Shown piece by piece: positions 36,615-64,000 of a DNA stretch of 64,000 bases. A program made the position numbers and the translations under genes. The stretch comes from an uncultured Mageeibacillus sp. Lineage in GTDB: Bacteria > Bacillota > Clostridia > Saccharofermentanales > UBA5734. Under the pieces are notes generated by a model, which was not told where the DNA came from, did no database searches, and was given only the letters and a program-made list of their open reading frames with translations. The DNA is taken from NCBI GenBank assembly GCA_964499985.1, contig CAZCMX010000001.1, positions 10,916 to 74,915 of the forward strand. Reading direction: 5' to 3'. The stretch's first letter is position 1. Each line of letters begins with the position of its first letter.

Positions 36615-37067
36615 TCAAGGGCTGGCGGTTGTTCCCAGGCTGATGGCCTCACCCAGATGCTTGACGCCAATGATCCGGTACCATTCGGAAAGATCCTGGA
36701 TGGGATTGTAGACATTCAGCAAAAGGATCGCCAGCAGAACGGCAAACAAAATCAGCAAGGCTCTGCGCAAAAAACGCTGCTGGCGTTCGGACTGACGCTT
36801 GCGGTTGATTTTCGCCACCGTGGTATAGCCCTTGAGACGATAGACGCGTTCCTGGCCAACCCGGCGGATCGCCTTGACCGCCTGCTTGCTGTCTCGTTTC
36901 AAATCGAGCTTCAGCTGGCGCAGCCAGAACGGACCATGTTTCTTCAGATAGGCCATCCCCTGGGCCAGCCGGGCTTTCACCGGTTCGAAAAATGCCAGCA
37001 GCCGGTCCAGTCCCTGGGGCTGGGCAGGCCTTACCGGTTGATCAGGTTTGGTATCGAGACTTTTCAA
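36615..37067 (-). CDS. Hypothetical single-pass membrane protein, transcribed divergently from lexA
   Basis: 150 aa with a TTG start 7 nt behind GGAG (AAGGATGGAG). It has a basic N-terminal region of about 100 aa, one TM segment (ALLILFAVLLAILLL) and a 33-aa C-terminal tail. I recognise no domain in it. It has its own terminator. Confidence 0.6.
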   Translation of the reverse strand: MKSLDTKPDQPVRPAQPQGLDRLLAFFEPVKARLAQGMAYLKKHGPFWLRQLKLDLKRDSKQAVKAIRRVGQERVYRLKGYTTVAKINRKRQSERQQRFLRRALLILFAVLLAILLLNVYNPIQDLSEWYRIIGVKHLGEAISLGTTASP

Positions 37068-37136
37068 ATTGCAGCTCCATCCTTTGTGTCCAAATCACAA
37101 GGGATATTATAACGTAAAATCGGGACTGCAACAAAA

Positions 37137-37150
37137 CGAACATAAGTTTG
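37137..37150. promoter_or_regulatory. LexA operator (Cheo/SOS box) 1
   Basis: CGAACATAAGTTTG differs from the Firmicutes consensus CGAAC-N4-GTTCG at one position. It overlaps the lexA -35 TTGACA (37148-37153). Confidence 0.65.
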
Positions 37151-37176
37151 ACAAGGCCATGCCAGTTTGTTACGAT
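37148..37176 (+). promoter_or_regulatory. Putative lexA promoter
   Basis: TTGACA, a 17-nt spacer, then TACGAT. It is bracketed by the two SOS-box-like sites. Confidence 0.5.
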
Positions 37177-37181
37177 TGATT

Positions 37182-37195
37182 TGAACATGTGTTTG
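37182..37195. promoter_or_regulatory. LexA operator (Cheo/SOS box) 2
   Basis: TGAACATGTGTTTG (GAAC-N4-GTTT core, two mismatches to the consensus) lies just downstream of the lexA -10. Confidence 0.55.
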
Positions 37196-37210
37196 TTTTG
37201 GAGGCCTGAC

Positions 37211-37840
37211 ATGACAACCTATCCATTTACCCGTTCCAATGTCGATGACACGGTCAACCGGGTCTATGAATATATTGTCGACTATATCCGGGACAAGGGC
37301 TATCCGCCGGCTGTCCGCGATATTTGTGCCGGGGTCGGGATTCGCTCGACGTCAACCATCCACAGCCATTTGCAGCGCCTGCAGCAGCAAGGCAAGATCG
37401 TCTACTCCTCAGGCAAACGCCGGGCCATCACCATCCCGGAGCAGGAGGCCAACCGTGTGGTCTCACTGCCGCTGGTCGGTGAGGTCACCGCCGGCATGCC
37501 GATCTTCGCCCAGGAGAATATCGAGCGCTTCTTCCCTTTCCCTGCCGATTTCCTGCCGGATGACCGGGATATCTTTGTCCTCAAGGTCAAGGGCGACAGC
37601 ATGGTCGGTGCCGCCATCCTCGATGGTGACTATGTGATCGTCAGGAAACAATCCAATGCCCGGACCGGGGATATCATTGTCGCCCTCGTCGGCGATGAAG
37701 CGACAGTCAAGAAACTGGCCAATGTGGACGGCCAGATTGTCCTCCAGCCGCAAAACCCAGCCTATCCCCTGATTCCCTTTGACAAGCCTGACTGCCAGAT
37801 CCTGGGCAAGGTCTGCGGACTCTACCGGGCCCATGGCTGA
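37211..37840 (+). CDS. lexA: SOS repressor LexA
   Basis: N-terminal winged helix-turn-helix (GYPPAVRDICAGVGIRSTSTIHSHLQRLQQQG), cleavage-site context VGEVTAGMPI, and S24 peptidase Ser in KGDSMVGA and Lys in EATVKKL. The start was set to ATG 37211 behind TGGAGG. Confidence 0.95.
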   Translation: MTTYPFTRSNVDDTVNRVYEYIVDYIRDKGYPPAVRDICAGVGIRSTSTIHSHLQRLQQQGKIVYSSGKRRAITIPEQEANRVVSLPLVGEVTAGMPIFAQENIERFFPFPADFLPDDRDIFVLKVKGDSMVGAAILDGDYVIVRKQSNARTGDIIVALVGDEATVKKLANVDGQIVLQPQNPAYPLIPFDKPDCQILGKVCGLYRAHG

Positions 37841-37851
37841 CCGAGTGGCAG

Positions 37852-38169
37852 TCACTGCATGTGCAGGGCCTTCGTATCGGGTTCTTCTGTGCGGGGCGCA
37901 TCATTGAAGATATAGGAGAAATCCTCCTGGGGATCGATCAGGCAGATTGCCGTTTTGAAGGCCAGGCGCTGGCGGCCATTCGTCCGCAGGATGATGCTGT
38001 GCTGGTCAAATCCGATGATCTGGCCGTATTTGATGCTCTGATCGATGAAATGGACAGCCACGGGCACGCGTTCTCGGCGGCATTGATTGAGAAAAACATC
38101 CTGGAGCTTGAGATCATAGGACTGGCGTTCCGGATGGGAACGGGTCGATGTAGACGCATTGGAATTCAT
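37852..38169 (-). CDS. hfq: RNA chaperone Hfq (divergent, with an N-terminal extension of about 20 aa)
   Basis: LQDVFLNQCRRERVPVAVHFIDQSIKYGQIIGFDQHSIILRTNGRQRLAFKTAICLIDP aligns to the Sm1/Sm2 core of Hfq (canonical LQDPFLN..RKERVPV...G.I..FD...ILL......YKHAIS). miaA-hfq synteny supports the call. Confidence 0.85.
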   Translation of the reverse strand: MNSNASTSTRSHPERQSYDLKLQDVFLNQCRRERVPVAVHFIDQSIKYGQIIGFDQHSIILRTNGRQRLAFKTAICLIDPQEDFSYIFNDAPRTEEPDTKALHMQ

Positions 38170-38273
38170 GCTGCGCCCTCCTTTCTCTTTCAGGATGAGC
38201 GTACAATAAGACGGGACATTTGACCATTAACTCAATCAGAAACTTTTCGACAAAACCGGCCTGGGGCTGGTTT

Positions 38274-39240: not shown

Positions 39241-41106
39241 CTAGACCACCCGCTTGAATTGCTTTTCCAGCTCATACTGGCTGATCCGGATGATCACCGG
39301 ACGTCCATGCGGGCAATGGTAGGGATCCTCCAGCTCACAAAGATCCTTGAGCAGCTGCACCATTTCCTGCGGATCGAGTTTGTCATGCGCTTTGATGGCG
39401 GCTTTGCAGGCCATGGTGTAAAACAATTCATCGATTTGCTCTTCGGAATGCAATTTGTCTGACAGCAAGGTATCGAGCACAACCCGGATGGCGGCCTGTG
39501 GTTTCAAGGCAAAACGGCCGCTGTCAGGCAAGCTGCGGAGTAAAATGGACTGGCTGCCAAAAGCCTCGTACTCAAAACCCAATTGGAGCAGCTTTTCCTG
39601 CTCGGCCAGAAGGACAGCCTGTTCCCGGGCGGACACTTCAACGGTCTGCGGAATCAGCAGGGGCTGGACCGCGGCCGGACCGCGGGCGCGGTGGCGGATC
39701 ACCAGCTGCTCAAACAGAATGCGTTCATGGGCCGCATGCTGGTCGACCAGCAGCAGATCCTGTTCATGCTCAAGCAGCAGGTAGGTTGCAAAAAGCTGGC
39801 CGATCAGCCGGGCCGAACTGAGGCTATGGATGGTTTTGGCAGTCTGGGCTGTTGTGGGATGAACCTGGGGGGTCTCGGCCGGGGGCAAATTGGGGAGCTG
39901 GTCCTGGTTTGCAGGCCGGTCCTGGCTTGCTGGCTGGTCCTGCGGCTCTGGCACAAGTTCGGCCGGGGGCTGTGCAGCACCAGCCGACAATGGCCGAGCC
40001 CAAACCGGATCGTCTGACCGCGCCGGCGCGTCCCGCAGGATCTGGCCAACCGTCATTTGCAGGGCTGGGCCTGCAGCAGTCTGGGGCAAGACCTGTGGCG
40101 AGCTCTCAACAATGCTGCCACTGGTCTGCAGCACATTCTGGATGGCATGGTAGACCGCCCGGAAAACAGCCTGCTCATCCCAGAAGCGGACCTCCATTTT
40201 CTGCGGATGGACATTCACATCCACCAGCGGTGAAGGCAGCTCAATTTTCAAAACCGCCAGGGGATGCTTTCGCTTCATCAAATGCGTGGCATAAGCCTCA
40301 TCGATCGCAGCACTGATGGCCCGGGATTTGACGAGACGGCCATTGACGAAAAAGCATTGCTGGTTGCGGCTATTGCGGGCGGCCTCTGGCATGCCGATAA
40401 AGCCGGTCACCCGGACAGGCGATAATTCATGCTCGAGCAGCTTGATTGTGCTGGCCGCCTCCTTGCCGAATACGGCAAAAATGGCACTGCGCAAGTCGTT
40501 ATTGCCAGGGGTATGCAGCAATTCATTGCCCTGGCTGACCAGTCGGAAGGAGACATCGGGCCGGGCCAGGCTCATCCGCTCCAGGACATCGGCGACTGCA
40601 GCCGCCTCAGAGCTGTCCTTTTTTAAGAATTTGAAGCGGGCCGGTGTATTGAAAAACAGGTTTTCGATCGTAATCGAGGTTCCTTCCGGACAGCCGGCGG
40701 GCCGGCAGGCCAAGAGCTCTCCGGCCGTGATTTCCACCGCAGTTCCCGTGGGCTGGCCGAGCAGGCGGGTTTCCAGCCTGACCTTGGCGACGGCAGCCAC
40801 ACTGGCCAGGGCCTCGCCACGGAAGCCCATGGTGGTCAATTGTTCGAGATCATCGATCGATTGGATCTTGCTGGTGGCATGGCGGCCAAAGGCCAGCTGG
40901 GCATCGACTTCATCCATGCCAGAGCCATTGTCGGTCACGCGGATCGAGCTGATGCCACCCTGGCGAATCTCGACATGAATCACCGATGCCCCGGCATCGA
41001 GGGCGTTTTCGACCAGCTCCTTGACGACGGAGGCGGGACGTTCGACAACTTCGCCCGCGGCGATGCTGTTAGCAGTCTGGGTATCCAGGACAGTGATGCG
41101 GCTCAT
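39241..41106 (-). CDS. mutL: DNA mismatch repair protein MutL (endonuclease-type)
   Basis: GHKL ATPase N-terminus ANSIAAGEVVERPASVVKELVENALDAG and DNGSGM. A Pro/Gln-rich linker follows. The C-terminal endonuclease motif is DQHAAHERILFE. Confidence 0.96.
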   Translation of the reverse strand: MSRITVLDTQTANSIAAGEVVERPASVVKELVENALDAGASVIHVEIRQGGISSIRVTDNGSGMDEVDAQLAFGRHATSKIQSIDDLEQLTTMGFRGEALASVAAVAKVRLETRLLGQPTGTAVEITAGELLACRPAGCPEGTSITIENLFFNTPARFKFLKKDSSEAAAVADVLERMSLARPDVSFRLVSQGNELLHTPGNNDLRSAIFAVFGKEAASTIKLLEHELSPVRVTGFIGMPEAARNSRNQQCFFVNGRLVKSRAISAAIDEAYATHLMKRKHPLAVLKIELPSPLVDVNVHPQKMEVRFWDEQAVFRAVYHAIQNVLQTSGSIVESSPQVLPQTAAGPALQMTVGQILRDAPARSDDPVWARPLSAGAAQPPAELVPEPQDQPASQDRPANQDQLPNLPPAETPQVHPTTAQTAKTIHSLSSARLIGQLFATYLLLEHEQDLLLVDQHAAHERILFEQLVIRHRARGPAAVQPLLIPQTVEVSAREQAVLLAEQEKLLQLGFEYEAFGSQSILLRSLPDSGRFALKPQAAIRVVLDTLLSDKLHSEEQIDELFYTMACKAAIKAHDKLDPQEMVQLLKDLCELEDPYHCPHGRPVIIRISQYELEKQFKRVV

Positions 41107-43757
41107 GCTAGCTTTCCTCCACCGCCCTTGGCTTTCTGCTGCAAATCGTACAGGGTGTTCAAGGCATCCAGTGGCGTCATCTGGCTGATCTCGAGCTGGC
41201 GCAGCTCTGACAGCAGGTCGCTGGCATTCTGGCCGGCCATGGCAGCGGCAAATAAGTCGAACTGCCCCTCCATTGGCTTGGCCAGGCGCCGGACCTTGCC
41301 CTTGGTCCTGGCATTATTGTCCGTCTCCAGCTGGAGCAGAAGCTCCGAAGCCCGCTTGACGACGGAATCGGGTACGCCTGCAATCCGGGCCACCTCGATG
41401 CCATAGCTGTCATCTGAACCGCCTTCGCGGATCTGGTGCAGGAATATGACCTCGCCCTGGGTATCGTCCACGGCCACATGGCAATTGAATACGCCCGGCA
41501 TCGACTCCGAAAGATCGGTCAGCTCATGGTAATGGGTGGCAAACAATGTCCGGCAGCCGAGGATGGCAGGGTCCGAAATATGTTCGATCACCGACCAGGC
41601 GATCGACAGGCCATCGTAGGTGCTGGTCCCACGGCCGATTTCATCGAGGATGAGCAGACTGCGGGCCGAAGCATGCTGCAAAATGGCCGCCACCTCACTC
41701 ATTTCAACCATGAAGGTCGACTGGCCACCGCCCAGATCATCAGAAGCACCGACGCGGGTGAATACGCGGTCAACCAGGCCAAGCCGGGCCGACTGGGCGG
41801 GCACAAAGCTGCCGATCTGGGCCAGAAGGACAATCTGGGCGACTTGGCGCATATAGGTCGATTTGCCGGCCATATTCGGTCCGGTCAGAATCATCAGGCG
41901 CCGGTCCGACAGATTCAGGATGGTATCATTGGGGACAAACAGGCTGTCCCCGAGCATCCTTTCAACCACTGGATGGCGGCCGCCACTGATCGTCAAGGCA
42001 TCGGAAAGATCGACCTCAGGCCGGCAATACTGCTGGCGGTCAGCCAGCTCGGCCAGGCCGGCCAGGCAGTCGATGGCGGCAATGGCCTGAGCCGTCTGCT
42101 GGAGACGGGGCAATTGAGCCAGGACCTGGTCACGGATTTCACAGAATAGTTCATACTCCAGCGCGATCGATTTTTGTTCCGCACCCAGGACCGTGTCTTC
42201 CATTTCCTTGAGTTCGCTGGTGATGTACCGTTCCCCATTGGCCAGGGTCTGCTTGCGGATATAGTCGTCAGGCACCTGGCTGAGATTCGACCGGGTGACA
42301 TCGAGATAAAAGCCAAAGACCTTGTTATAGCCGATCTTGAGGCTGCGGATTCCTGTCCGCTCCCGTTCACGGTTTTCCAGGTCGATGATCCATTGCTTGC
42401 CATCGCGGGCAGCTGCCCGCAGCTGGTCGACCTGGTCCTGGTAGCCATCCTTGATCAGCTGACCTTCCTTGAGACTGACCGGTGGCTCATCATGGATGGC
42501 GGCGGTCAACAGGGTTTCGAGGTCAGCCAGGGCATCCAGCTGGCGCGACCAGCCAGAAATGGCACTGCTGTCGATCTCGGCCAGACCGGCCATCAGGCCC
42601 GGCAGCTTGGCCAGAGACCGGCGCAGGGCGACCAAATCACGGGCATTGGCGGTCTTCAAGGCCAGTTTGCTGCATAAGCGCTCCAGGTCATGCAGTCCAT
42701 GCAGACGCTCGCGGATTTCCTGGCGGGCCAGGTAGGCTTGCTTGAAATCCGCCACAGCCTGCTGGCGGAACTGGATATCATGCAGACTCAGCAGGGGTTG
42801 CTCAAGCCAGCGGCGCAGCAGGCGGGATCCCATGCTGGTCATCGTCCGGTCGATGGCCCAGAGCAGGCTGCCCTTGCGTTGCTTGTCCCGGATCGTCTCA
42901 GTCAATTCCAGGTTGCGCCGGGCATTGGCATCCAGGGTCATGAAATCCGTGATCTGATAGGGCTCGATCCGGGCAATATGGTCCGGTGACTGGTGCTGGG
43001 TTTCCTTCAGATAATGGATCAGGACGGCGGATGCCCTGGCCCAGAGGGCATGGTCATCGGCCTGTGGCAGGATTTCCCGCATGAATTCAGGCAAGAATTC
43101 GTGATCCGGACGACAGGACAACGTGACATTGCTACGAATAACGGCCTGCAGAGTCTGGGCCGTTTCGCCGAAAATGCTGTTGTGGACAATCTCAGCCGGA
43201 TTGAACCGGGCCAGTTCATCCGACAGCTTGGCCAGGGTTTGGCCAACCACCAGCTGGGTCGTTTCAAACAGGCCTGTCGACAGGTCACAGGCGGCCAGGC
43301 CGAAATACTGGTTCAGCTGGTAGATGGCGACGATATAATTGTTCCGCTTTTCGTCCAGTGACGAGGGCTCCAGCACGGTCCCTGGCGTCACGACCCGGAT
43401 CACTTCGCGCCGGACGATGCCCTTGGCCAGGGCAGGATCTTCGACTTGCTCGCAGATTGCTACCTTATAACCCCGGTTGACCAGGCGATTGATGTAGTTT
43501 TCAGCCGCATGGTAAGGGACACCACACATCGGCGCCCGTTCCTTCTGGCCACAGTCTCTGCCGGTCAAGGCCAGCTCCAGCTCCCGGGCCGCAATCACCG
43601 CATCGTCGAAAAACAATTCGTAAAAATCACCAAGCCGGAAAAACAGCAGGCAGTCCGGCCAGGTTTTTTTCTGGTCGAGATATTGCTGCATCATCGGAGT
43701 GATGCGGGACAGATCAATATCTGCGTAAGTCAGCCCCATGGCAATAGACGCTCCCAT
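41103..43757 (-). CDS. mutS: DNA mismatch repair protein MutS
   Basis: ITPMMQQYL..., Walker A GPNMAGKSTYMRQ, and DEIGRGTSTYDG. An alternative start at ATG 43739 is possible. The gene overlaps mutL by 4 nt and the miaB 3' end. Confidence 0.95.
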   Translation of the reverse strand: MGASIAMGLTYADIDLSRITPMMQQYLDQKKTWPDCLLFFRLGDFYELFFDDAVIAARELELALTGRDCGQKERAPMCGVPYHAAENYINRLVNRGYKVAICEQVEDPALAKGIVRREVIRVVTPGTVLEPSSLDEKRNNYIVAIYQLNQYFGLAACDLSTGLFETTQLVVGQTLAKLSDELARFNPAEIVHNSIFGETAQTLQAVIRSNVTLSCRPDHEFLPEFMREILPQADDHALWARASAVLIHYLKETQHQSPDHIARIEPYQITDFMTLDANARRNLELTETIRDKQRKGSLLWAIDRTMTSMGSRLLRRWLEQPLLSLHDIQFRQQAVADFKQAYLARQEIRERLHGLHDLERLCSKLALKTANARDLVALRRSLAKLPGLMAGLAEIDSSAISGWSRQLDALADLETLLTAAIHDEPPVSLKEGQLIKDGYQDQVDQLRAAARDGKQWIIDLENRERERTGIRSLKIGYNKVFGFYLDVTRSNLSQVPDDYIRKQTLANGERYITSELKEMEDTVLGAEQKSIALEYELFCEIRDQVLAQLPRLQQTAQAIAAIDCLAGLAELADRQQYCRPEVDLSDALTISGGRHPVVERMLGDSLFVPNDTILNLSDRRLMILTGPNMAGKSTYMRQVAQIVLLAQIGSFVPAQSARLGLVDRVFTRVGASDDLGGGQSTFMVEMSEVAAILQHASARSLLILDEIGRGTSTYDGLSIAWSVIEHISDPAILGCRTLFATHYHELTDLSESMPGVFNCHVAVDDTQGEVIFLHQIREGGSDDSYGIEVARIAGVPDSVVKRASELLLQLETDNNARTKGKVRRLAKPMEGQFDLFAAAMAGQNASDLLSELRQLEISQMTPLDALNTLYDLQQKAKGGGGKLA

Positions 43758-46298: not shown

Positions 46299-46928
46299 CT
46301 AGTTGGCTTTTGGTTCCATGGTTTCGGGAATGAAATCGATCACACGGTCAGAGAGCTGCTCCCGCTGGATCAATTTTTTCAGGTCTTTGGCATGGTTGGA
46401 GGACAGGATCAGGATATCGGCATCATGGTCGTCCTGGCCAGGGTTTTTGATTTTCAGAAAAACCAGGCGGGAACGGCGGACTGAAGCATATCCGAGGCGG
46501 ATCTTCTCCCGGACCAGGGACAGAAGTCTGGAATTGCCACCGGACAGGGCTTTGAGGATTTCCCGGTCCGGCAGGGAATGGATCTGGTCCGCAGTCATGA
46601 TCACGAGCTTGTCCAGCTGGCTGCGGGAACATTGCCACAGATCATGGTCCGATTCAAATCGGATGCAATCCGGTGTGATAAACCAGTTGACAGGGGTCGG
46701 GACCGGAAATGGCAAGCCGCCCAGATGGCGGACCTGGCTGGCACTGGTCGCACCCAACTCATGACTGCGCAGGACCATGCGATGGCGTTCGAGGTGCTGG
46801 CGAAAATTGATCGCAAACAAACCGATGCTGCTGCCGATGATAAAGGCAGCCGCAATGCCGGGTGACAGGGACCCTGTCATGGCCAATAACAGACTGCTGA
46901 TGATCAAAACCAGGATCAGGCCGGTCAA
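46299..46928 (-). CDS. Hypothetical membrane protein (two N-terminal TM helices plus a soluble domain of about 150 aa)
   Basis: 209 aa with TM segments GLILVLIISSLLLAM and GIAAAFIIGSSIGLFAI. I recognise no motif in the remainder. It ends 21 nt upstream of the DAHP synthase gene on the same strand. Confidence 0.55.
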   Translation of the reverse strand: MTGLILVLIISSLLLAMTGSLSPGIAAAFIIGSSIGLFAINFRQHLERHRMVLRSHELGATSASQVRHLGGLPFPVPTPVNWFITPDCIRFESDHDLWQCSRSQLDKLVIMTADQIHSLPDREILKALSGGNSRLLSLVREKIRLGYASVRRSRLVFLKIKNPGQDDHDADILILSSNHAKDLKKLIQREQLSDRVIDFIPETMEPKAN

Positions 46929-47773: not shown

Positions 47774-48325
47774 TCAGGTGAGCCGATAGCGTTGCAAAGC
47801 CTGGCGCCTCGACCTGGCCCCCGGCAATACCTGTTCCAGCAGCTGGTGGAATCGCGGGCTGTGGTCGAACTGGACCAAGTGGCAAAGCTCGTGGACGACA
47901 ATGTATTCGAGCAGGTCGTCTGGCAGAAGACCGGCACAGACATTGATCGAAATCAGGCCGGACTTGCTGCAACTGCCCCATCTTCGCTTCTGGCGGCGGA
48001 TGGTCACCTGGCTGGGCAGGAGTTGCGGGAACCGTTCCAGGACCATTTTGACCTTGGCCCTGGTCAGTTCGCGCAAAGCAGCCAGCTGCGCGGTGTCGCC
48101 CGGGATCTCGACCTGGACCAGCCGGCCATTCTCGGTCATCTTCCGGCGAATCCAGGACTCCTTGTCGCGGATGAATCGTTCAATCTCGGCCAGGGGCATT
48201 TTCAGCCCGCAGCGCACCTCCAGCTGGTTATCCGGATGAAGGACGAGGGCCATGGTTTTGCGCCGGCTGCGAACGACCGTAAAGGGAACAGGCACCGCCC
48301 GGGGGACGGGCTCAGGCCTGGCCAT
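47774..48325 (-). CDS. YgjP/DUF45-family (WLM-like) putative metallopeptidase
   Basis: The C-terminal zinc motif VVHELCHLVQFDHSPRF (HExxH) and the N-terminal SRRKTMALVL...V block are typical of DUF45. The start is uncertain: 48325 was chosen, while the longest ORF reaches 48391 and overlaps the upstream gene by 80 nt. Confidence 0.7.
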   Translation of the reverse strand: MARPEPVPRAVPVPFTVVRSRRKTMALVLHPDNQLEVRCGLKMPLAEIERFIRDKESWIRRKMTENGRLVQVEIPGDTAQLAALRELTRAKVKMVLERFPQLLPSQVTIRRQKRRWGSCSKSGLISINVCAGLLPDDLLEYIVVHELCHLVQFDHSPRFHQLLEQVLPGARSRRQALQRYRLT

Positions 48326-49169
48326 AACCCTGTTCAAGGCAGCGCCGGGCGCGTTCAGCGGCTTTGCCACCCAGCCTGATTTGTTCAGCAAGAAAGTCTG
48401 GATGCTCGGCCAGAAAGCGGACCATGTACTGGTGGGGATCCTGCATGAAGCGGTTGACCTGCTCCGTCTGCTCTTGGCTCAAAAGTCCGGCCGCAGTCGC
48501 CTGCTCAAACAGGTTGCGGTCGATTTTGGCCAGGGCGGTCAATTCAACCCCGGCTTGCTGCAAAATTTCGCGCCCCCCCTGGTCACGGTCGACCACAACA
48601 GCCGTATCTGTGATTGATCCGCCCAGACGGGCGATGGCAGGCAGCCAGGCTCTGGTATAGCTGGATGCCTCGGTCACCAGATCAGCGATATGCAGAACTT
48701 TCTGTCCCCGCAGGGCCTGGTCAGGCAGCTCATGCACGGCTTGGAAATTCGGATCGCTCCAGAAGGCCTTGCCATCCTTGAGAATCGCGACATGTGGCTT
48801 GCCGGTTCTTGCTGCCAGCGGGATGGAAAAGAAATAGTCCCGTCTCTCCCCACCGGAAACCACATCAAAATCAAGCTCGGCCACGGCATCAACGAGCTGG
48901 TCAATGACGGCCTGGAAAACCGGCTGCTGCTGGTCATGTTCCATGATCACCGCAGCAAGCAGTCCCGGCAGTTCAAGCGGTGTTTGGACAGCCTGCTCGA
49001 TCAGGGTCAATAACTGGTTGGCCTCGGCTTCACTGCCATACAGGAAATGGGTATTGATATAGTATGGTCCAAGGGTCCCGGACGTATACCAGAAAGGCTG
49101 GTCTGCCGGACTGACCCGGATGGCGCTGGTATCGAACAATGCCTTGATGATCGATTGGTCTTGCTTCAT
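48312..49169 (-). CDS. Type I phosphoribosyltransferase, PyrE-like but atypical (long, with a divergent PRPP loop)
   Basis: 285 aa, the last gene of the pyr operon. It contains FWYTSGTLGPYYIN (compare PyrE F.L.SG..SPYF.N), GGERRDYFFSIPLA and a PRPP-loop position reading VLHIADLVTEASS instead of the usual acidic-acidic-x-x-T-T-G-G-T. It has an extra C-terminal region of about 80 aa. The start was set to ATG 49169 behind GGAGGA. Confidence 0.6.
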   Translation of the reverse strand: MKQDQSIIKALFDTSAIRVSPADQPFWYTSGTLGPYYINTHFLYGSEAEANQLLTLIEQAVQTPLELPGLLAAVIMEHDQQQPVFQAVIDQLVDAVAELDFDVVSGGERRDYFFSIPLAARTGKPHVAILKDGKAFWSDPNFQAVHELPDQALRGQKVLHIADLVTEASSYTRAWLPAIARLGGSITDTAVVVDRDQGGREILQQAGVELTALAKIDRNLFEQATAAGLLSQEQTEQVNRFMQDPHQYMVRFLAEHPDFLAEQIRLGGKAAERARRCLEQGYGQA

Positions 49170-49214
49170 GGCCTGGTTCCTCCACAAATGGTCCTGAAAA
49201 GTTCTATTATACCG

Positions 49215-58233: not shown

Positions 58234-58320
58234 GGGGATGTGGCGGAACTGGCAGACGCAGCAGACTCAAAATCTGCCGATTGAGAGATCGTAAGGGTTC
58301 GATTCCCTTCATCCCCACCA
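58234..58320 (+). tRNA. tRNA-Leu (anticodon CAA), class II with long variable arm, CCA encoded
   Basis: 7-bp acceptor GGGGATG/CATCCCC, anticodon stem GCAGA/TCTGC with loop CTCAAAA, T-arm AAGGG-TTCGATT-CCCTT, and a 3' ACCA. Confidence 0.92.
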
Positions 58321-58322
58321 GC

Positions 58323-58368
58323 AAAAAAGACCTTGGAACCGCCGGATTGGTTCCAGGGTCTTTTTTTT
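58323..58368 (+). terminator. Rho-independent terminator after tRNA-Leu(CAA)
   Basis: 12-bp stem GACCTTGGAACC/GGTTCCAGGGTC followed by T8. Confidence 0.8.
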
Positions 58369-58382
58369 GAAAAATTTGATGC

Positions 58383-58412
58383 TTGACAAGACAAGTCCCC
58401 TTTCACTATAAT
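58383..58412 (+). promoter_or_regulatory. Putative promoter of the tRNA-Met/Tyr pair
   Basis: TTGACA, an 18-nt spacer, then TATAAT. Confidence 0.5.
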
Positions 58413-58451
58413 CTCCCTTGTTGCTGAGACAAGGTGCCGCGCACGGCAAAT

Positions 58452-58528
58452 GGGCCATTAGCTCAGTTGGTCAGAGCAGCCGGCTCATAACCGGTCGGTC
58501 CGGGGTTCAAGTCCCTGATGGCCCACCA
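58452..58528 (+). tRNA. tRNA with CAT anticodon (elongator Met, or Ile2 if lysidinylated), CCA encoded
   Basis: Acceptor GGGCCAT/ATGGCCC, D-arm TAGCTCAGTTGGTCAGAGC, anticodon loop CTCATAA, and T-loop GGTTCAAGTCC. The G1-C72 pair and the lack of a GGG/CCC anticodon stem argue against an initiator tRNA. Confidence 0.88.
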
Positions 58529-58549
58529 CCTCGCACAACATTTTCATAT

Positions 58550-58634
58550 GGGGGAATTCCCGAGCGGCCAAAGGGGGCAGACTGTAAATCTGTTGTCACC
58601 GACTTCGGTGGTTCGAATCCACCTTCCCCCACCA
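58550..58634 (+). tRNA. tRNA-Tyr (anticodon GTA), class II, CCA encoded
   Basis: Acceptor GGGGGAA/TTCCCCC, anticodon stem-loop GCAGA-CTGTAAA-TCTGT, long variable arm, and T-loop GGTTCGAATCC. Confidence 0.92.
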
Positions 58635-58754: not shown

Positions 58755-60179
58755 TTATTGCAGGCCTGCCACCAGGTTCTTGAACAGATTGCCGCGTTCC
58801 TCAAAATGGCGGAATTTGTCAAAGCTGGTCCCGGCCGGTGACAAGACAACGACTTCGCCCGGTTGTGCCAGCGACTGGGCCAGGAGCACGGCCTCTTCAT
58901 AGGAATCAACCCGGTGGATGGCCAGGGTATCCGGATGGACCTTGGCCATCGGGGCTTCGAGCAACAGGTTGTCCCGGATCAGGCTGGCATTGTCGCCACA
59001 GAGGATGATTTTGCGGGACACTGCAGCGATCGCCTCACCCAGGCCAGTATAGTCACATTTCTTGTCCTTGCCGCCGGTGATCAGGACCACCTGCTCCTTG
59101 CGTTCAGCCAGAGCGAGCAGGGCCGCCCGGGTGCGGGTCGGACTGGTATCGATCGAACTGTTATAGTAACGGACTCCGTCGAGCTCGCGCACGAGCTCGA
59201 GTCGATGCTCCACCCCGCCAAACCGGGTCGCGATGGCGGCAATATGCTCCGGTTTGACATAAGGCCAGGTTGCGGCCGTGGCAGCGAGATAATTCTCGAT
59301 ATTGTGCTTGCCGGGAATAATGATGTCCTTCGTCGCTACGACGGGCGTATCGCTGCCGTTCTCGCGGTAGCAGATCATGCCATCGACCACCAGGGCGCCC
59401 GTCAGCAGGCCGGCATTTTTCCGGGCAAACAGGATCGTTTCCCCGCGGGCTTCGGGAATCATCGAGCGGGTGACATAATTTTCATGGTTCAAAACCAGAC
59501 GGCCCATGAAGGACTGGTACAGGTAGATGTTCTTCTTGGCATCGATGTATTCCTGATAATCCTTGTGGACATCGAGGTGGTTGGGCGTGACATTGGTCAC
59601 GACAGCCACATCGGGGCTCTGGCGCATGCTCGAGAGCTGGAAGCTCGACAGCTCGAGCACCACCATGTCTTCCGGCCTGACCTGGTCGATCCGGTCGAGC
59701 AGCGGGGTGCCGATATTGCCTCCCAGGTGAACCGTATAGCCTGCCTCTTTCAGGATCAGGCTGACCAGAGTCGTCGTTGTCGTCTTGCCATCCGAACCGG
59801 TAATCGCAAAAATCCTCGCCGGGCAAAGCGCCATGAAGACTTCCATTTCCGAGGTGATGATCGCCCCACGTTCACGTTCCGCCAGCAGCTGGGGAACATC
59901 CGGGCGCATCTTGGGCGTCCGGAAAACCAGGTCAAAGCCTTTAAGGCGGTCCAGGTAGTCGGGGCCGACTGACCAGTCCAGGTCGATGCCTTCGGCGGCA
60001 AACTCTGCCTGGGTTCGGCTCAGGACCGGATCAGCCGCATCGAGCATGTCGAAGGCCGTGATCTGGGCCCCCAGCTGGTGGATATAGCGGATCAGCGGCC
60101 GGTTGCTGATGCCAACCCCGAGGACGGCGATCCGTTTGCCACGAATCATCTGCTTGAACTGTTCCAGTTTCTGGTTCAT
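58755..60179 (-). CDS. murD: UDP-N-acetylmuramoylalanine--D-glutamate ligase
   Basis: Mur ligase P-loop ITGSDGKTTTTTL, with an N-terminal Rossmann segment RIAVLGVGISN. The start was set to ATG 60179 behind GGAGGG. Confidence 0.93.
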   Translation of the reverse strand: MNQKLEQFKQMIRGKRIAVLGVGISNRPLIRYIHQLGAQITAFDMLDAADPVLSRTQAEFAAEGIDLDWSVGPDYLDRLKGFDLVFRTPKMRPDVPQLLAERERGAIITSEMEVFMALCPARIFAITGSDGKTTTTTLVSLILKEAGYTVHLGGNIGTPLLDRIDQVRPEDMVVLELSSFQLSSMRQSPDVAVVTNVTPNHLDVHKDYQEYIDAKKNIYLYQSFMGRLVLNHENYVTRSMIPEARGETILFARKNAGLLTGALVVDGMICYRENGSDTPVVATKDIIIPGKHNIENYLAATAATWPYVKPEHIAAIATRFGGVEHRLELVRELDGVRYYNSSIDTSPTRTRAALLALAERKEQVVLITGGKDKKCDYTGLGEAIAAVSRKIILCGDNASLIRDNLLLEAPMAKVHPDTLAIHRVDSYEEAVLLAQSLAQPGEVVVLSPAGTSFDKFRHFEERGNLFKNLVAGLQ

Positions 60180-60224
60180 TTTTAGCCCTCCAAAAATAAG
60201 TGCTCTAAAATTATAAATCAGGTC

Positions 60225-60253
60225 TTGCAATTTGACCATCGGCAGGTTATGAT
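60225..60253 (+). promoter_or_regulatory. Putative promoter of tRNA-Leu(CAG)
   Basis: TTGCAA, a 17-nt spacer, then TATGAT, ending 13 nt upstream of the tRNA 5' end. Confidence 0.4.
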
Positions 60254-60265
60254 AATCAACGTCCC

Positions 60266-60352
60266 GCGGAGATGGCGGAATTGGCAGACGCGCTAGTTTC
60301 AGGTACTAGTGATCGAGAGGTCATGCAGGTTCAAGTCCTGTTCTCCGCACCA
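60266..60352 (+). tRNA. tRNA-Leu (anticodon CAG), class II, CCA encoded
   Basis: Acceptor GCGGAGA/TCTCCGC, anticodon stem CTAGT/ACTAG with loop TTCAGGT, long variable arm, and T-loop GGTTCAAGTCC. Confidence 0.9.
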
Positions 60353-60357
60353 TCAGG

Positions 60358-60409
60358 AACTGCATCGTTTTGTGCACCCGCACACGCGATGCAGTTTTTG
60401 TATTTCCCG
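60358..60409 (+). terminator. Rho-independent terminator after tRNA-Leu(CAG)
   Basis: 10-bp stem AACTGCATCG/CGATGCAGTT around a structured loop, followed by T5. Confidence 0.65.
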
Positions 60410-60465
60410 GATTTTTGACGGTGCCAATCCGGTCGCAGACTTGACCAGAAAGGGGGATCTGCGAG

Positions 60466-62970
60466 ATGTCCAATCCGAACGATCCGGCTCAGCCGGCCGC
60501 TGCCCTGCCGGTCCTGCCTGTGGCGGTGCGGATCCTGGCCGAGGCTGTCCATCGCCAGGGCGGGCTGGGCGGACCTGCCTATGCTTCGGTCAGCGGCCCC
60601 GAAGGGACCCGCCTGCACCAGAAGCTGGTTCGCCATTATGCCGCCCAGCTCGGTGAGGATAAAGTCCTGTCCGAGCTTCGCCTCAGCGGCCAGGTGGCCT
60701 GTGAGGCGGTCCTGCTCCAGGTCAGCGGCCGCTGCGACCTGGTTTTGCACGATGAGCAGGAGACCGTCCTGATCGAGGCGAAAAGCTTCGCTGGCTCTGC
60801 CCAGCATCTGCCGCCTCAGGGCGATCCGGCCCACTGGGCCCAGGCGATGCTGTATGCCCATCTCTATCTGCAGGATTCCGCAAGGGAAGCCCTGACCATC
60901 GGCCTGGCCTATGTCAGCCAGGAAAATTCTGCAATCATTGAATTCCGCCGGACCGAAACCCGCGCCAGCCTCGAGGAGTTTTTCCGCAGGACGGCGCGGT
61001 CATTTGCCAGTCTGGCCGGCCAGATCCTGACCGGGCAAAAGCTGCGCGATGATAGTGCCAAGACCTGCCGTTTCCCCTTCGCCAGCCTGAGGCCAGGCCA
61101 GAAGCGCCTGATGCAAGAGGTCATCGGCATCACCCGGCAAAAGGGTGTCCTGTTCGCCCAGGCTCCGACAGGCACCGGCAAGACGCTGTCCGTCCTCTTC
61201 CCGGCGATCCGGCTCTTGGCCCATCACCAGATTGACCGCGTCTTCTACCTGACGGCCATGTCCTCCACGCGCAAGGTGGCCGAGCAGGCGCTGGCGGATT
61301 TGCGGGCCAATGGCCTGGTTTTGCGCAGCCTGACCCTGAGGGCCAAAGAAAAAAGCTGTCTGGCCCCGGACTTGTTCTGCAATGTGCGGCTCTGTCCCTA
61401 TGCCATCTCGTATTACCAGCATTTGCCGGCTGCCCTGTCGGATTTGCTGAAAGCCGGCGGTCATTGCCCGCCGGAACAGATCCGGGCCGTCGCCCAGACG
61501 CACCAGGTCTGTCCCTTTGAATTGTCACTGGACTATGCCCTGTACTGCGACGTCATCATCGGTGACTACAACTATGTCTTCGATCCCCGGATCCAGCTCG
61601 ACCGCTTTTTCAACAATACGGACCAGAGTCATCTGGTCCTGGTCGATGAAGCCCATAATCTGCCGGATCGTTCGCGGGAAATGTACAGTGCCGAATTCGA
61701 TTTTGCCCTGGTCAAGGAGGCCATCAGCCTTGTCAAGGATCGCCACCCTTATCTGGCCCAGACGCTGGAGAAGCTCGAGCAATATGGCCTGCGACTGGCA
61801 GCAGCCATGAAAGCCTTGGACGCTGCGGACCAGGTCCATCCTGCCACGGAGCCAACCGGGTTTGCCGCGGTGGAAACGGACCAGACTGGCCGCCTGATGA
61901 AAAGTGACGAGTTCCTGGCCATGACAGCCAAGCCGGCCAACCTGGTCAAATTGCTGGGCCGGACCATCCATTTTGGCCGCCAGTACCTGGATGAGCAGCC
62001 GGACGATCCGGAGTCCAAAAAAATACTCGATCTTTTCCTGATGGCCCATTTTTTCTGCAAGGTGGCTGACCAATTCTTCGGGCCGGCCTATATCACCACG
62101 GCAGCCCGTTCAGAGGCCACTGCCCGGATCCGCCTGATGTGCCTCGATGCCTCTGCCCACTTGACCGAGATATACCGTGACCGCCATCCCGTCGTCTTTT
62201 TTTCTGCCACTCTGACACCGCTCGACTACTATATCGGTCTGCTCGACAGTGATGTCAGCACCAGGCCACCGGAAAAGCTCAGCCTGCCCTCCCCTTTCCC
62301 GCCGGAGAATTTCCTGGTCCTGTTACAGACCCGTCATTCGACCCGCTTTCAGGATCGCCTGGCGACATTTGTGCCTATTGTCGAGGACATCCTGGCCGCC
62401 GCCAGAACCCGGATCGGCAATTACCTCGTCTTCCTGCCTTCATATGCGTATCTGGCGCGGGTGCGCCAGATCCTCAAAAGCCGGCCTGACCGCGCGGATT
62501 TCGATTTCATTGTCCAGGTTCCCAGCATGGATGAAAAACAAAAGCAGGCCTTTTTGAACCGGTTCGAGCACTATGGCCAGAGGACCTTGATCGGTCTGGC
62601 TGTGCTGGGCAGCCTCTTCAATGAAGGCATCGATTTGACCGGAGAGCGCCTCTGCGGCGTGGTCATTGTAGGCGTGGGCTTGCCCCAGCTCAGTCCGGAG
62701 CGTGAAATCATGAGCCAGTATTTTGCCAGCCGGCTGGGACGGGGCTTTGAATATGCCTACCAATTCCCTGGATTCAACAAGGTCCAGCAGGCCGCCGGCC
62801 GGGTGATCCGCTCAGAATCCGATGTCGGTTTTGTCCTGTTGATCGATGACCGTTATAAAAAGCCTGAATACCAGGCCCTGTTCCCGCCGGACTGGCAACC
62901 AGTGGCCATCGACCGGGCCGAGGCCCTGACGGATGAATTGAAGGCGTTCTGGGCCAGTCACAGGCCCTGA
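60466..62970 (+). CDS. Fusion protein: N-terminal RecB/Cas4-like PD-(D/E)XK nuclease domain plus XPD/Rad3/DinG-type Fe-S DNA helicase
   Basis: 834 aa. Nuclease-like motifs are GRCD(91)LVLHD, VLIE(104)AK(106)SF and Q(126)AMLY(130). The helicase has Walker A AQAPTGTGKT, a four-Cys Fe-S insert (KSCLAPDLFCNVRLCPY ... HQVCPFE), the DEAH box LVLVDEAHNL, and C-terminal motifs GSLFNEGIDL and QAAGRVIRS. Confidence 0.85.
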   Translation: MSNPNDPAQPAAALPVLPVAVRILAEAVHRQGGLGGPAYASVSGPEGTRLHQKLVRHYAAQLGEDKVLSELRLSGQVACEAVLLQVSGRCDLVLHDEQETVLIEAKSFAGSAQHLPPQGDPAHWAQAMLYAHLYLQDSAREALTIGLAYVSQENSAIIEFRRTETRASLEEFFRRTARSFASLAGQILTGQKLRDDSAKTCRFPFASLRPGQKRLMQEVIGITRQKGVLFAQAPTGTGKTLSVLFPAIRLLAHHQIDRVFYLTAMSSTRKVAEQALADLRANGLVLRSLTLRAKEKSCLAPDLFCNVRLCPYAISYYQHLPAALSDLLKAGGHCPPEQIRAVAQTHQVCPFELSLDYALYCDVIIGDYNYVFDPRIQLDRFFNNTDQSHLVLVDEAHNLPDRSREMYSAEFDFALVKEAISLVKDRHPYLAQTLEKLEQYGLRLAAAMKALDAADQVHPATEPTGFAAVETDQTGRLMKSDEFLAMTAKPANLVKLLGRTIHFGRQYLDEQPDDPESKKILDLFLMAHFFCKVADQFFGPAYITTAARSEATARIRLMCLDASAHLTEIYRDRHPVVFFSATLTPLDYYIGLLDSDVSTRPPEKLSLPSPFPPENFLVLLQTRHSTRFQDRLATFVPIVEDILAAARTRIGNYLVFLPSYAYLARVRQILKSRPDRADFDFIVQVPSMDEKQKQAFLNRFEHYGQRTLIGLAVLGSLFNEGIDLTGERLCGVVIVGVGLPQLSPEREIMSQYFASRLGRGFEYAYQFPGFNKVQQAAGRVIRSESDVGFVLLIDDRYKKPEYQALFPPDWQPVAIDRAEALTDELKAFWASHRP

Positions 62971-63698
62971 AGCAGCAAGAGCCGCTGGTATTTCTTCTCC
63001 ATGATCACTGTCAGATAGTGTTCGGAGAAATCACAGATCTCTTTTTTGACAATATCCGATACCTTGAACGTAAAGAGCCGCTCGGCTTTGCTGTGCAGGA
63101 TGTATTGCAGGCAGGACAAGGCCGGGGCAGAGACTGACCTTATATCCTGGCCCGGACTGGGCCGGTGGTCATCTGCGCAGACCAGGCCATGGGCTCTGAA
63201 ATCAAACCAGGCGGAGGTCTGCGGCTTGCCGCAGGCCAGGCAGGCATCCAGGACGGGCGTGAAGCCGGAGATCGCCAGGGCCTTGAACTGGGCCACATGC
63301 GTCACCAGCAGCGGATCGGGCTGGTTCTGCAGGGCATGGCAGGCATAGGCCCACAGGATATACATCTGGTCATCTGCCAGATCGTCACGCACCAGGTCAT
63401 GGAAGACTTCGGCCAGATGGGCTGCGCAAATCAGGCGGTCCAGATCTTCCCGCAGGCGCAGGAAGGGCTCGACCAGCTCAGCAGAGTCGATGGTATAGCG
63501 CCCTTTATAGCTGAACAGGGTGAAATCGCTCAGGGCAAAGATTTGCGTGGCCGAAAGCAGCGGACTGCGCACCCGCCTTGAGCCGCGGGCCATGGCGGTC
63601 ACCAGGCCATGGGTGGCGGTCAGGATTTCGACCAGGCGGTCCGCTTCGCCGATGGCCACCTCCCGGAGGATAAAACCACGGACTTGCTCATGGGACAT
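62958..63698 (-). CDS. recO: DNA repair protein RecO
   Basis: RGFILREVAIGEADRLVEILTATHGLVTAMARGSRR forms the OB-fold N-terminus, with a central Cys pair (LDACLACG). era-recO synteny supports the call. Its 3' end overlaps the helicase 3' end by 13 nt. Confidence 0.9.
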   Translation of the reverse strand: MSHEQVRGFILREVAIGEADRLVEILTATHGLVTAMARGSRRVRSPLLSATQIFALSDFTLFSYKGRYTIDSAELVEPFLRLREDLDRLICAAHLAEVFHDLVRDDLADDQMYILWAYACHALQNQPDPLLVTHVAQFKALAISGFTPVLDACLACGKPQTSAWFDFRAHGLVCADDHRPSPGQDIRSVSAPALSCLQYILHSKAERLFTFKVSDIVKKEICDFSEHYLTVIMEKKYQRLLLLQGL

Positions 63699-63703
63699 GG
63701 GGC

Positions 63704-64000
63704 TCAGGAATGGTAGCCCAAGTCATTGAGGATGCTCTGGCGGTTGCGCCAGTCTTCCCTGACCTTGACGAAGAGGTCCAGATAGCAGGGGCAGTCCAGC
63801 ATCGCTTCGATCTCCTTGCGGGCATCCGTGCCAATCGCGGTCAGCATGCTGCCCTTCTTGCCAATGATGATCCCTTTGTGGGTGTCACGCTCACACAGGA
63901 TGGTCGCTTCGATGGTGACTCTGAGCCTCTCCCCCGTTTCGTCGGTTTCCTCCTTGAAGGTTTCGATCGATACGGCGGTGCCATGGGGAATTTCCTCATG
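63704..64000 (-). CDS. era: GTPase Era, C-terminal KH domain (5' part lies outside the window)
   Basis: Reverse translation, open to the window edge, gives ...IEATILCERDTHKGIIIGKKGSMLTAIGTDARKEIEAMLDCPCYLDLFVKVREDWRNRQSILNDLGYHS*. This ORF is not in the ORF track because no start codon lies inside the window. Confidence 0.9.
   Translation of the reverse strand, partial: HEEIPHGTAVSIETFKEETDETGERLRVTIEATILCERDTHKGIIIGKKGSMLTAIGTDARKEIEAMLDCPCYLDLFVKVREDWRNRQSILNDLGYHS

Follow-up and report, generated by a model that had tools for sequence, protein, structure and literature searches.

A gene convergent with recO in an uncultured clostridial lineage encodes a predicted EndoDinG-type nuclease-helicase

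The EndoDinG subgroup of DinG proteins was named and defined in a 2025 review (PMC11981726); a structural and biochemical study followed in 2026 (PMC13650095). The type example, Finegoldia magna DinG (FmaDinG; PDB 9KQH), is a 5'-3' helicase and Mn2+-preferring endonuclease that digests into duplex DNA in an ATP-dependent manner; its activity on single-stranded DNA was measured as that of an endonuclease, not of a polar exonuclease (PMC13650095). FmaDinG and the Bdellovibrio bacteriovorus EndoDinG (PMC11981726) share one domain order: nuclease, motor domain 1 (MD1) with Fe-S and Arch inserts, and motor domain 2 (MD2). ExoDinG proteins (Staphylococcus aureus and Bacillus subtilis DinG; PDB 8ZEF/9II8) likewise join a DinG-like core to an N-terminal, translocation-coupled nuclease, but theirs is a DEDD (DnaQ-like) 3'-5' exonuclease whose fold is unrelated to the one described below. 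E. coli DinG and YoaA have the same XPD-family Fe-S 5'-3' helicase core without a nuclease domain, and archaeal and eukaryotic XPD/Rad3 proteins, which share the Fe-S and Arch elements, also lack a fused nuclease. AddAB, AdnAB, RecBCD and Dna2 combine the nuclease fold and its D...ExK...QxxxY motifs with a translocating motor, but these motors are of superfamily 1 (SF1; UvrD- or Upf1-like). The nuclease lies C-terminal to the motor in AddAB and RecB, and N-terminal to it in Dna2. In contrast to AddAB and RecBCD, FmaDinG is an endonuclease for which Chi-type regulation is not known.

Here we describe an 834-residue protein with the EndoDinG domain order from an uncultured Clostridia/Eubacteriales lineage; its gene lies in a 64-kb window, by which we mean the whole stretch of DNA analyzed (Table 1). 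Judging by sequence comparison and structural models, we estimate a probability of roughly 93% that the gene encodes an EndoDinG, that is, an XPD-family 5'-3' Fe-S/Arch helicase with a predicted active, RecB-like PD-(D/E)XK nuclease at its N-terminus. Because this fusion is already known, the result confirms an annotation but discovers nothing new, and the architecture, structure and core biochemistry published in 2025-2026 (PMC11981726, PMC13650095) leave it little weight as a discovery. A first-pass annotation of this DNA had started from the premise that characterized bacterial DinG proteins are either nuclease-less or carry a DEDD domain, which the naming (PMC11981726) and the structural and biochemical study (PMC13650095) of EndoDinG have made outdated. 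The practical value lies in the name, which should be EndoDinG-type nuclease-helicase, not "ATP-dependent DNA helicase" or "ERCC-2".

Table 1. Positions of the EndoDinG gene, its domains and motifs, and neighboring features in the 64-kb window
Feature	Position	Strand	Remarks	Basis
EndoDinG gene	60466..62970	+	834 aa, ATG start, stop codon within coordinates	ORF
PD-(D/E)XK nuclease domain	60511..61065	+	~residues 16-200	Pfam PDDEXK_1, residue mapping, conservation, domain model
Walker A / helicase motif I	61162..61185	+	APTGTGKT, residues 233-240	Sequence, conservation
Fe-S domain	61357..61512	+	C298/C305/C310/C349	FmaDinG alignment, conservation
DEAH box / motif II	61645..61656	+	Residues 394-397	Sequence, conservation
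Arch domain (approximate)	61693..62145	+	Residues ~410-560	HMMER gap, conservation, Pfam HBB, model secondary structure
Motor domain 2, Helicase_C_2	62404..62901	+	Residues 647-812	Pfam, E = 1.5e-39
tRNA-Leu, anticodon CAG	60266..60352	+	Directly 5' of EndoDinG gene	ARAGORN
Terminator-like hairpin (60354-60400), then U-run	60354..60406	+	End of tRNA transcript	RNA fold
Shine-Dalgarno-like AAGGGGG	60449..60455	+	Ends 10 nt 5' of ATG	Direct reading
recO	62958..63698	-	Convergent neighbor, outside the enzyme	RecO_N + RecO_C
era, 3' end (KH domain)	63704..64000	-	Upstream of recO in same operon; gene cut by window edge	Translation, by eye
mutS	41103-43757		17-23 kb upstream, as mutL and lexA	
mutL	39241-41106		17-23 kb upstream, as mutS and lexA	
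lexA ORF	37148-37840		17-23 kb upstream, as mutS and mutL	

The assignment rests first on overall similarity to FmaDinG. A phmmer comparison with 9kqh_A gives E = 5e-118 and ~35% identity over residues 19-426 and 505-811, nuclease included, and the full-length AlphaFold model (pLDDT 88.3) finds 9kqh_A as its best Foldseek match (E = 1e-64, TMt 0.85), with archaeal and eukaryotic XPD next. In sequence as in fold, only 9KQH has a helicase core closer than that of XPD/Rad3; the score from the rad3 model TIGR00604, 165.5, falls short of its cut-off, 247. FmaDinG has 748 residues; the protein described here has ~12 additional N-terminal residues and a longer Arch domain. Models of ExoDinG fall short (TIGR01407, 87 against 548; PRK07246, 22.8 against 794; PRK08074, far below its cut-off), the ExoDinG fold match is weaker (TMq 0.50), and Pfam finds no DEDD/DnaQ-like exonuclease domain in the 834 residues. 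The E. coli DinG/YoaA equivalog models reach 80-103 bits against cut-offs of 598-680 (NF008729, 79.7 against 598).

The N-terminal region had been read as a RecB/Cas4-like PD-(D/E)XK domain without the Cas4/AddB cysteine cluster, and both parts of that reading hold. Pfam PDDEXK_1 matches residues 49-202 with 35 bits, where 22 would suffice, and the motif set comprises D91, E104-A-K106 and Q126AMLY130, a QxxxY at 126-130. Structure prediction, proposed earlier as a check, yields a model of the isolated domain (pLDDT 91.2) with AddA/Cas4-type nuclease folds among its matches: 9kqh_A comes first, followed by Cas4 SSO0001, EXO5, AddA, AdnAB, RecB, RecE and MGME1. Cas4, the best match outside DinG proteins (SSO0001, E = 4.5e-8), shares the catalytic motifs but has a four-cysteine cluster in its nuclease; this is absent here because only Cys79 and Cys90 lie inside the domain, with Cys201 at its C-terminal edge. 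The Cas4 model TIGR00372 scores 22.2 against a cut-off of 65, and no cas genes or CRISPR array were found around the gene in the 64-kb window. The catalytic residues H51, E70, D91, E104 and K106 and the substrate-binding residues R22 and R89 align with FmaDinG H40, E54, D75, E88, K90, R10 and R73, respectively, and all seven are identical. Among 119 homologues sharing 37-78% identity, these seven residues are conserved in 107-119; loss of the motif residues among homologues had been named as a result that would count against a nuclease, and their near-invariance instead indicates selection for catalysis.

The remainder of the protein is, as previously proposed, a complete XPD/DinG-type Fe-S helicase of superfamily 2 (SF2). 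The profile search suggested for it returns, besides PDDEXK_1, the Pfam domains DEAD (residues 210-282), DEAD_2 (333-411) and Helicase_C_2 (647-812), all above their cut-offs, and every motif coordinate given earlier proved exact on re-reading of the ORF. The Walker A motif, whose GTGKT occupies residues 236-240, and the DEAH box are identical to those of FmaDinG, with D394 aligned to D378, the position of the ATPase-dead FmaDinG mutant. The four cysteines C298, C305, C310 and C349 correspond to FmaDinG C282, C289, C294 and C333 and are invariant in the 119 homologues; this canonical CCCC motif is a predicted [4Fe-4S] site in the helicase, whereas AddB and Dna2 carry their Fe-S cluster in the nuclease domain. 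In motor domain 2, P740, F761 and R796 are identical to FmaDinG P677, F698 and R733, and F628 and R631 likewise match their aligned counterparts, while three DNA-contact residues of FmaDinG are changed (K249 to M265, F478 to L525 and K482 to F529). Pfam HBB matches weakly at residues 541-629. Within the Arch domain, residues 427-504 are variable, ~30 aa longer than in FmaDinG and the least conserved segment across the 119 homologues, and the two enzymes may therefore not treat their substrates in quite the same way. These analyses establish how the protein folds, in what order its domains stand, and that all its catalytic, Fe-S and ATPase residues are identical to those of FmaDinG.

By homology to FmaDinG, the motor domains would engage DNA at a single-stranded 5' tail and move 5'-3' with ATP, the Fe-S and Arch domains would aid strand separation, and the DNA would be passed into the N-terminal nuclease, acting as a Mn2+-preferring single-stranded DNA endonuclease; since the motor would feed this nuclease, cutting would enter duplex only with ATP hydrolysis. 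Entry to the nuclease site is probably controlled by a flexible segment at the N-terminus. From FmaDinG we infer the preferred metal, the endonucleolytic mode of cutting and the 5'-3' polarity. An earlier guess of a Dna2-like or AddAB-like end-processing enzyme is therefore right in part: a single-chain nuclease-helicase fits the FmaDinG biochemistry, but the motor belongs to SF2, not SF1, and the homologue's activity is endonucleolytic (PMC13650095).

The gene has its own Shine-Dalgarno-like sequence and follows a terminated tRNA, both as first annotated. The terminator-like hairpin is strong (-28.4 kcal/mol, z = -6.9, with 0 of 200 shuffles equally stable) and was overlooked by a simple terminator scan because of its internal loop; no sigma-70-like promoter was found between it and the ATG. 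At the other end, the coordinates of the two genes confirm a 13-nt 3' overlap with recO, the last gene of the era-recO operon on the opposite strand, and no terminator-like site was found between the two. The same annotation had seen a repair neighborhood here. Although recO, mutSL and lexA are indeed present, a pyrimidine (pyr) operon, murD and tRNA genes stand between the distant mutSL and lexA and the EndoDinG gene, and recO is convergent and conserved as a neighbor in few loci, which makes the argument weak. When all ORFs within 4 kb were clustered in 80 related loci, with tblastn searches using RecO and MurD, recO adjoined the gene in 11, all of the nearest clade. The only recurrent neighbors were recO, era and a membrane HD protein; they recur in these 11 loci alone, the closest of the 80, and in each case face the EndoDinG gene from the other strand, and we reject recO synteny as evidence of an operon. 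An Era-like GTPase also lies downstream of recO in related loci. The absence of any conserved gene partner among the 80 loci adds to what is described for EndoDinG.

In E. coli, dinG is under LexA control. By contrast, no LexA-box-like site lies upstream of the EndoDinG gene (60353-60465), judged by an operator drawn from one promoter of the lineage: the exact GAAC-N4-GTTC box is absent from the 64-kb window, and with one mismatch allowed, two GAAC-N4-GTTT sites appear in the lexA promoter, at 37138 and 37183, though none precedes our gene. LexA/SOS control was accordingly set aside and damage induction is unsupported, a result that is not decisive. The gene is a stand-alone chromosomal gene of housekeeping type, with no LexA box detected.

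The cellular role of EndoDinG is probably in DNA repair or in the processing of replication intermediates. One could go further and read the protein, in Saccharofermentanales, Oscillospiraceae, Mageeibacillus and their relatives, as a resection or gap-processing enzyme that makes single-stranded DNA for RecFOR, because in these bacteria the 3' ends of its gene and recO stay next to each other, with overlapping stop regions here. This would, if true, be the first physiological role for the family, but we regard it as quite improbable.

Nuclease-helicase fusions are frequent in defense systems, and one might suppose that this one, like Hna or DdmDE, acts against phages or plasmids instead of maintaining the genome. 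Hna and DdmDE do appear as distant fold matches, at ranks 43 and 47, and the authors of the FmaDinG study count defense against mobile elements among the possible functions (PMC13650095). Yet the genes around it (the pyr operon, murD, tRNAs and era-recO) belong to the housekeeping core, a synteny retained in the nearest clade; the GC content of the gene, 0.60, is close to the 0.58 of the window, none of the 80 loci revealed a recurrent defense-type partner, and the PADLOC matches are to generic helicase or Cas-helicase models only. We consider a defensive function very improbable.

Where a PD-(D/E)XK domain is joined to a helicase, it has in many cases lost activity. The N-terminal module might accordingly be degenerate and serve only in DNA binding or helicase regulation, a specialization of the kind seen in pExoDinG or S. 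aureus DinG; its identity to the FmaDinG nuclease domain is just ~26%, and precomputed annotations show PDDEXK_1 in some homologues only. Against this, the protein retains the two substrate arginines and all five residues that coordinate metal or phosphate, each of them near-invariant among the 119 homologues, and alanine at the equivalent FmaDinG residues abolishes nuclease activity (PMC13650095). A non-catalytic module therefore seems scarcely credible.

It is highly improbable that the protein is a type IV CRISPR-associated DinG (CasDinG/Csf4) serving a type IV interference complex as its helicase effector, a reading that we reject: the PADLOC model PDLC01439 ("typeIV_DinG; CAS-IV-A; associated"), whose strong match (residues 202-819, E = 7e-107) could mislead, spans the generic helicase core only, TIGR03117 cas_csf4 (30.7; cut-off 400) and TIGR00372 match weakly, a tandem-repeat scan found no CRISPR-like array in the 64-kb window, the neighbors are murD, tRNA-Leu, recO and era, no cas-like neighbor recurs in the 80 loci, 9KQH and XPD far outrank the CasDinG structures among the fold matches, and the CasDinG Fe-S module is degenerate and cysteine-free (PMC13650095), in contrast to the four invariant cysteines of this protein and its homologues.

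The fusion is widespread. The full protein has at least 3531 homologues at E <= 1e-10, which together with the E-value to 9kqh_A puts the domain matches well outside what chance would give, and the nuclease domain alone, used as query, retrieves 594 cluster representatives. Among the best 150 of these 594 matches, 84 carry the domain at the N-terminus of a protein of 700-1000 aa, and most matches of intermediate length have a Walker A motif ~30 residues further on, in keeping with the fusion. It is spread over Bacillota, Desulfobacterota, Verrucomicrobia, Anaerolineae, Latescibacterota, Aminicenantes and other phyla, and includes many Bacilli (Paenibacillus, Bacillus, Listeria ilorinensis, Enterococcus and Lactobacillaceae), a distribution far wider than the six orders listed for EndoDinG in 2026 (PMC13650095).

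The match that decides the identity of the 834-aa product, encoded by a single ORF with an ATG start, is to the solved structure 9kqh_A ("DNA 5'-3' helicase", 748 aa; E = 5e-118), which aligns in two stretches (query residues 19-426 to chain residues 7-411, and 505-811 to 458-748). Because the alignment begins at residue 19, the N-terminal domain is covered by it. 9KQH is the Finegoldia magna DinG (FmaDinG), put forward as the first EndoDinG characterised (Li et al., Cell Mol Life Sci 2026, PMC13650095); the EndoDinG subgroup, DinG homologues carrying a PD-(D/E)XK nuclease domain at the N-terminus, was defined in a 2025 review (PMC11981726). The Pfam profile search proposed in the first-pass annotation recovered PDDEXK_1, DEAD, DEAD_2 and Helicase_C_2, and the NCBIfam models for rad3, YoaA, DinG, the DnaQ-DinG fusion, Csf4 and Cas4 matched only below threshold, which places the query outside these curated equivalogs. 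The structural interpretation as a PD-(D/E)XK nuclease fused to an Fe-S helicase is supported. The novelty at first ascribed to this fusion is lost: nothing in the architecture is new, since the family has already been named (PMC11981726) and, in FmaDinG, solved and biochemically assayed (PMC13650095).

Features of the EndoDinG gene, its product and the window (gene positions in nt; protein positions in residues; L numbers are loci of the related-gene survey)
Feature	Position	Strand	Detail
EndoDinG gene	60466-62970	+
PDDEXK_1	residues 49-202		Pfam, 35 bits, cut-off 22
DEAD	residues 210-282		Pfam
DEAD_2	residues 333-411		Pfam
Helicase_C_2	residues 647-812		Pfam, E = 1.5e-39
Nuclease motif	D91		in GRCDLV
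Nuclease motif	E104-A-K106
Nuclease motif	Q126AMLY130
Walker A	residues 236-240		GTGKT
DEAH	residues 394-397
Nuclease residues required for activity	H51, E70, R89, D91, E104, K106		FmaDinG H40, E54, R73, D75, E88, K90
Substrate-binding arginine	R22		FmaDinG R10
Four-cysteine set (Fe-S)	C298, C305, C310, C349		FmaDinG C282, C289, C294, C333
ATPase-dead position	D394		FmaDinG D378
Arch segment	residues 427-504 (61744-61977)	+
Pyrimidine biosynthesis operon	49-57.5 kb
tRNA cluster	58234-58634		Leu-CAA, Met-CAT, Tyr-GTA
murD	58755-60239	-
tRNA-Leu(CAG)	60266-60352
recO	62958-63698	-	RecO_N + RecO_C
era, 3' end	63704-64000	-
ORFs without Pfam match	48312-49187, 46299-46928	-	E <= 1e-5
ORFs without Pfam match	36657-37112, 37861-38223	+	E <= 1e-5
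Fusions in Bacilli, Desulfobacterota, Verrucomicrobia, Anaerolineae, Latescibacterota, Aminicenantes			L022-L026, L032, L042, L044, L046, L047, L050, L057, L060-L062, L066, L069, L072, L078

A full-length AlphaFold2 model built on a 30-sequence alignment is confident (pLDDT 88.3, pTM 0.86), and Foldseek against the PDB places 9kqh_A first (E = 1e-64, TMt 0.85, 799 columns), followed by archaeal and eukaryotic XPD; the DinG proteins of S. aureus and E. coli rank next, and CasDinG lower still. Modelled on their own (pLDDT 91.2), residues 1-205 match the 9KQH nuclease domain first and, further down, Cas4 SSO0001, human EXO5, AddA, AdnA/AdnB, RecB, RecE and MGME1; they also match the Argonaute-associated Cas4-like ACE1. 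These matches bear out the RecB-like PD-(D/E)XK fold proposed for the N-terminal domain. The motif residue numbers in the first-pass annotation were all confirmed by script, as was its claim that the nuclease domain lacks a Cas4/AddB-type cluster, since the N-terminal 200 residues hold cysteines at positions 79 and 90 only.

EndoDinG relatives are widespread. A word-indexed protein search returned at least 3531 proteins at E <= 1e-10, the nearest named relatives among the matches listed being Eubacteriales and Clostridia MAGs (76-78% identity); a protein 100% identical to the query is already in a public assembly. In GTDB contigs (one genome per species), relatives turned up in at least 470 stretches, of which 80 loci were kept. 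In all 80, matches span residue 19 or earlier to ~810-834, so the fusion is intact, and it extends over several phyla: hosts comprise Clostridia, Erysipelotrichaceae, Desulfobacterota, Verrucomicrobia subdivision 3, Anaerolineae, Latescibacterota, Aminicenantes and many Bacilli (Paenibacillus, Cohnella, Bacillus, Metabacillus, Halobacillus, Listeria ilorinensis, Enterococcus and, in Lactobacillaceae, Fructilactobacillus and Levilactobacillus). This range is broader than the order list of PMC13650095, from which the lineages grouped in the table are missing; some of these hosts are aerobes, which tempers that paper's remark on 'predominantly anaerobes'. Searched alone against 1.84 billion cluster representatives, the nuclease domain gave 594 matches at E <= 1e-3. 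Among the best 150, 84 are 700-1024 aa long with the domain N-terminal, and most of those of 240-700 aa carry a Walker A ~30 residues past the domain, as truncated fusions would; this reading covers all but the 30 shortest matches. From this search, the nuclease subtype appears to occur essentially only as a DinG fusion.

The immediate flanks are as first described: tRNA-Leu(CAG) is followed by its own very stable terminator hairpin (-28.4 kcal/mol, z = -6.9) and a U-run, a Shine-Dalgarno-like AAGGGGG ends 10 nt from the ATG, and the gene overlaps the 3' end of convergent recO, the terminal gene of era-recO, by 13 nt. A promoter search of the stretch from the tRNA terminator to the start codon (60353-60465) gave no sigma-70-like site. 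murD is bracketed by this tRNA and the three-tRNA cluster, four tRNAs in total; miaB-like, mutS, mutL, miaA and lexA lie farther upstream in the window. Among the long ORFs without a Pfam match, 48312-49187 has pyrD on one side and, on the other, a YgjP-like metallopeptidase ORF that it overlaps by ~80 nt; it may be a gene extended too far or frameshifted.

We compared neighbourhoods across the 80 loci by tblastn and all-against-all clustering of flanking ORFs. Only 11 have recO-era downstream, encoded on the opposite strand; they are precisely the nearest relatives (Saccharofermentanales, Oscillospiraceae, Mageeibacillus and Eubacteriales MAGs), and no other broadly recurring neighbour was found. 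The lexA promoter carries two GAAC-N4-GTTT sites, CGAACATAAGTTTG (37138-37149) and TGAACATGTGTTTG (37183-37194), ahead of a likely true start at the ATG at 37211, which suggests a host SOS operator of this type; only one other exact match lies in the window (8598-8609), and none in the 113 nt that precede the EndoDinG gene. Because recO-era adjoins so few loci and the upstream region holds no such site, the neighbourhood is no evidence of function, and the "repair neighbourhood" of the first-pass annotation is inherited synteny at best. The sole locus-specific hint at a cellular role, a weak one, is the tail-to-tail arrangement with recO kept in one Clostridia clade. A defence role is unlikely, as the gene sits in a housekeeping context and no partner gene recurs broadly in the 80 loci.

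We also considered whether the protein is a type IV CRISPR-associated DinG (CasDinG), as residues 202-819 match PADLOC PDLC01439 ('typeIV_DinG; CAS-IV-A; associated', E = 7e-107). However, this match reflects the common helicase core only; the 64-kb window holds no CRISPR array, no cas genes neighbour the EndoDinG gene, and its Fe-S cysteines are intact, whereas CasDinG lacks them. Context and cysteines rule against CasDinG, and a PDLC01439 match outside any CRISPR/cas context means that automated annotation of defence systems could wrongly call EndoDinG genes type IV CRISPR DinG.

FmaDinG residues were mapped onto the EndoDinG query residue by residue from the HMMER alignment, in which the alanine opposite D91 is the D75A mutation carried by the crystal. 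The helicase DNA-contact residues K278, K280, F575, R578, P677, F698 and R733 are identical in the query and I679 is similar (L742); only K249 (M265), F478 (L525) and K482 (F529) differ. The motif residues, on whose conservation the fusion reading had been staked, are indeed conserved: when the query and 118 near-full-length homologues (37-78% identity) are aligned with MAFFT, E70, R89, D91, E104, K106, Q126, Y130, the four cysteines, G236, K239, T240, D394, E395 and H397 are each kept in 118-119 of 119 sequences, H51 in 113 and R22 in 107. That the N-terminal nuclease is dead is contradicted by this conservation.

FmaDinG cuts end-blocked ssDNA into several products and is therefore an endonuclease rather than a polar exonuclease, with a preference for Mn2+ and for DNA over RNA (PMC13650095). 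Its 5'-3' unwinding acts on 5'-tailed, splayed, flap, bubble and gapped substrates, and its digestion advances into duplex regions only if ATP is present and the DEAH aspartate is intact (PMC13650095). In the mechanism proposed there, the motor translocates from a 5' tail and feeds DNA to the nuclease, and an N-terminal helix-to-loop "gate" operates (PMC13650095). By analogy, the query would be an Mn2+-preferring ssDNA endonuclease and 5'-3' helicase whose motor would load at a 5' tail and pass DNA into the nuclease. Residues ~30-43, the gate equivalent, are the lowest-confidence part of the nuclease domain in our models, which is compatible with a mobile gate and not proof of one. The Arch segment is ~30 residues longer than its FmaDinG counterpart, and no other part of the query is so poorly conserved (mean identity 27%, compared with 57-59% for the motor domains); it contains a low-confidence loop at residues 455-459.
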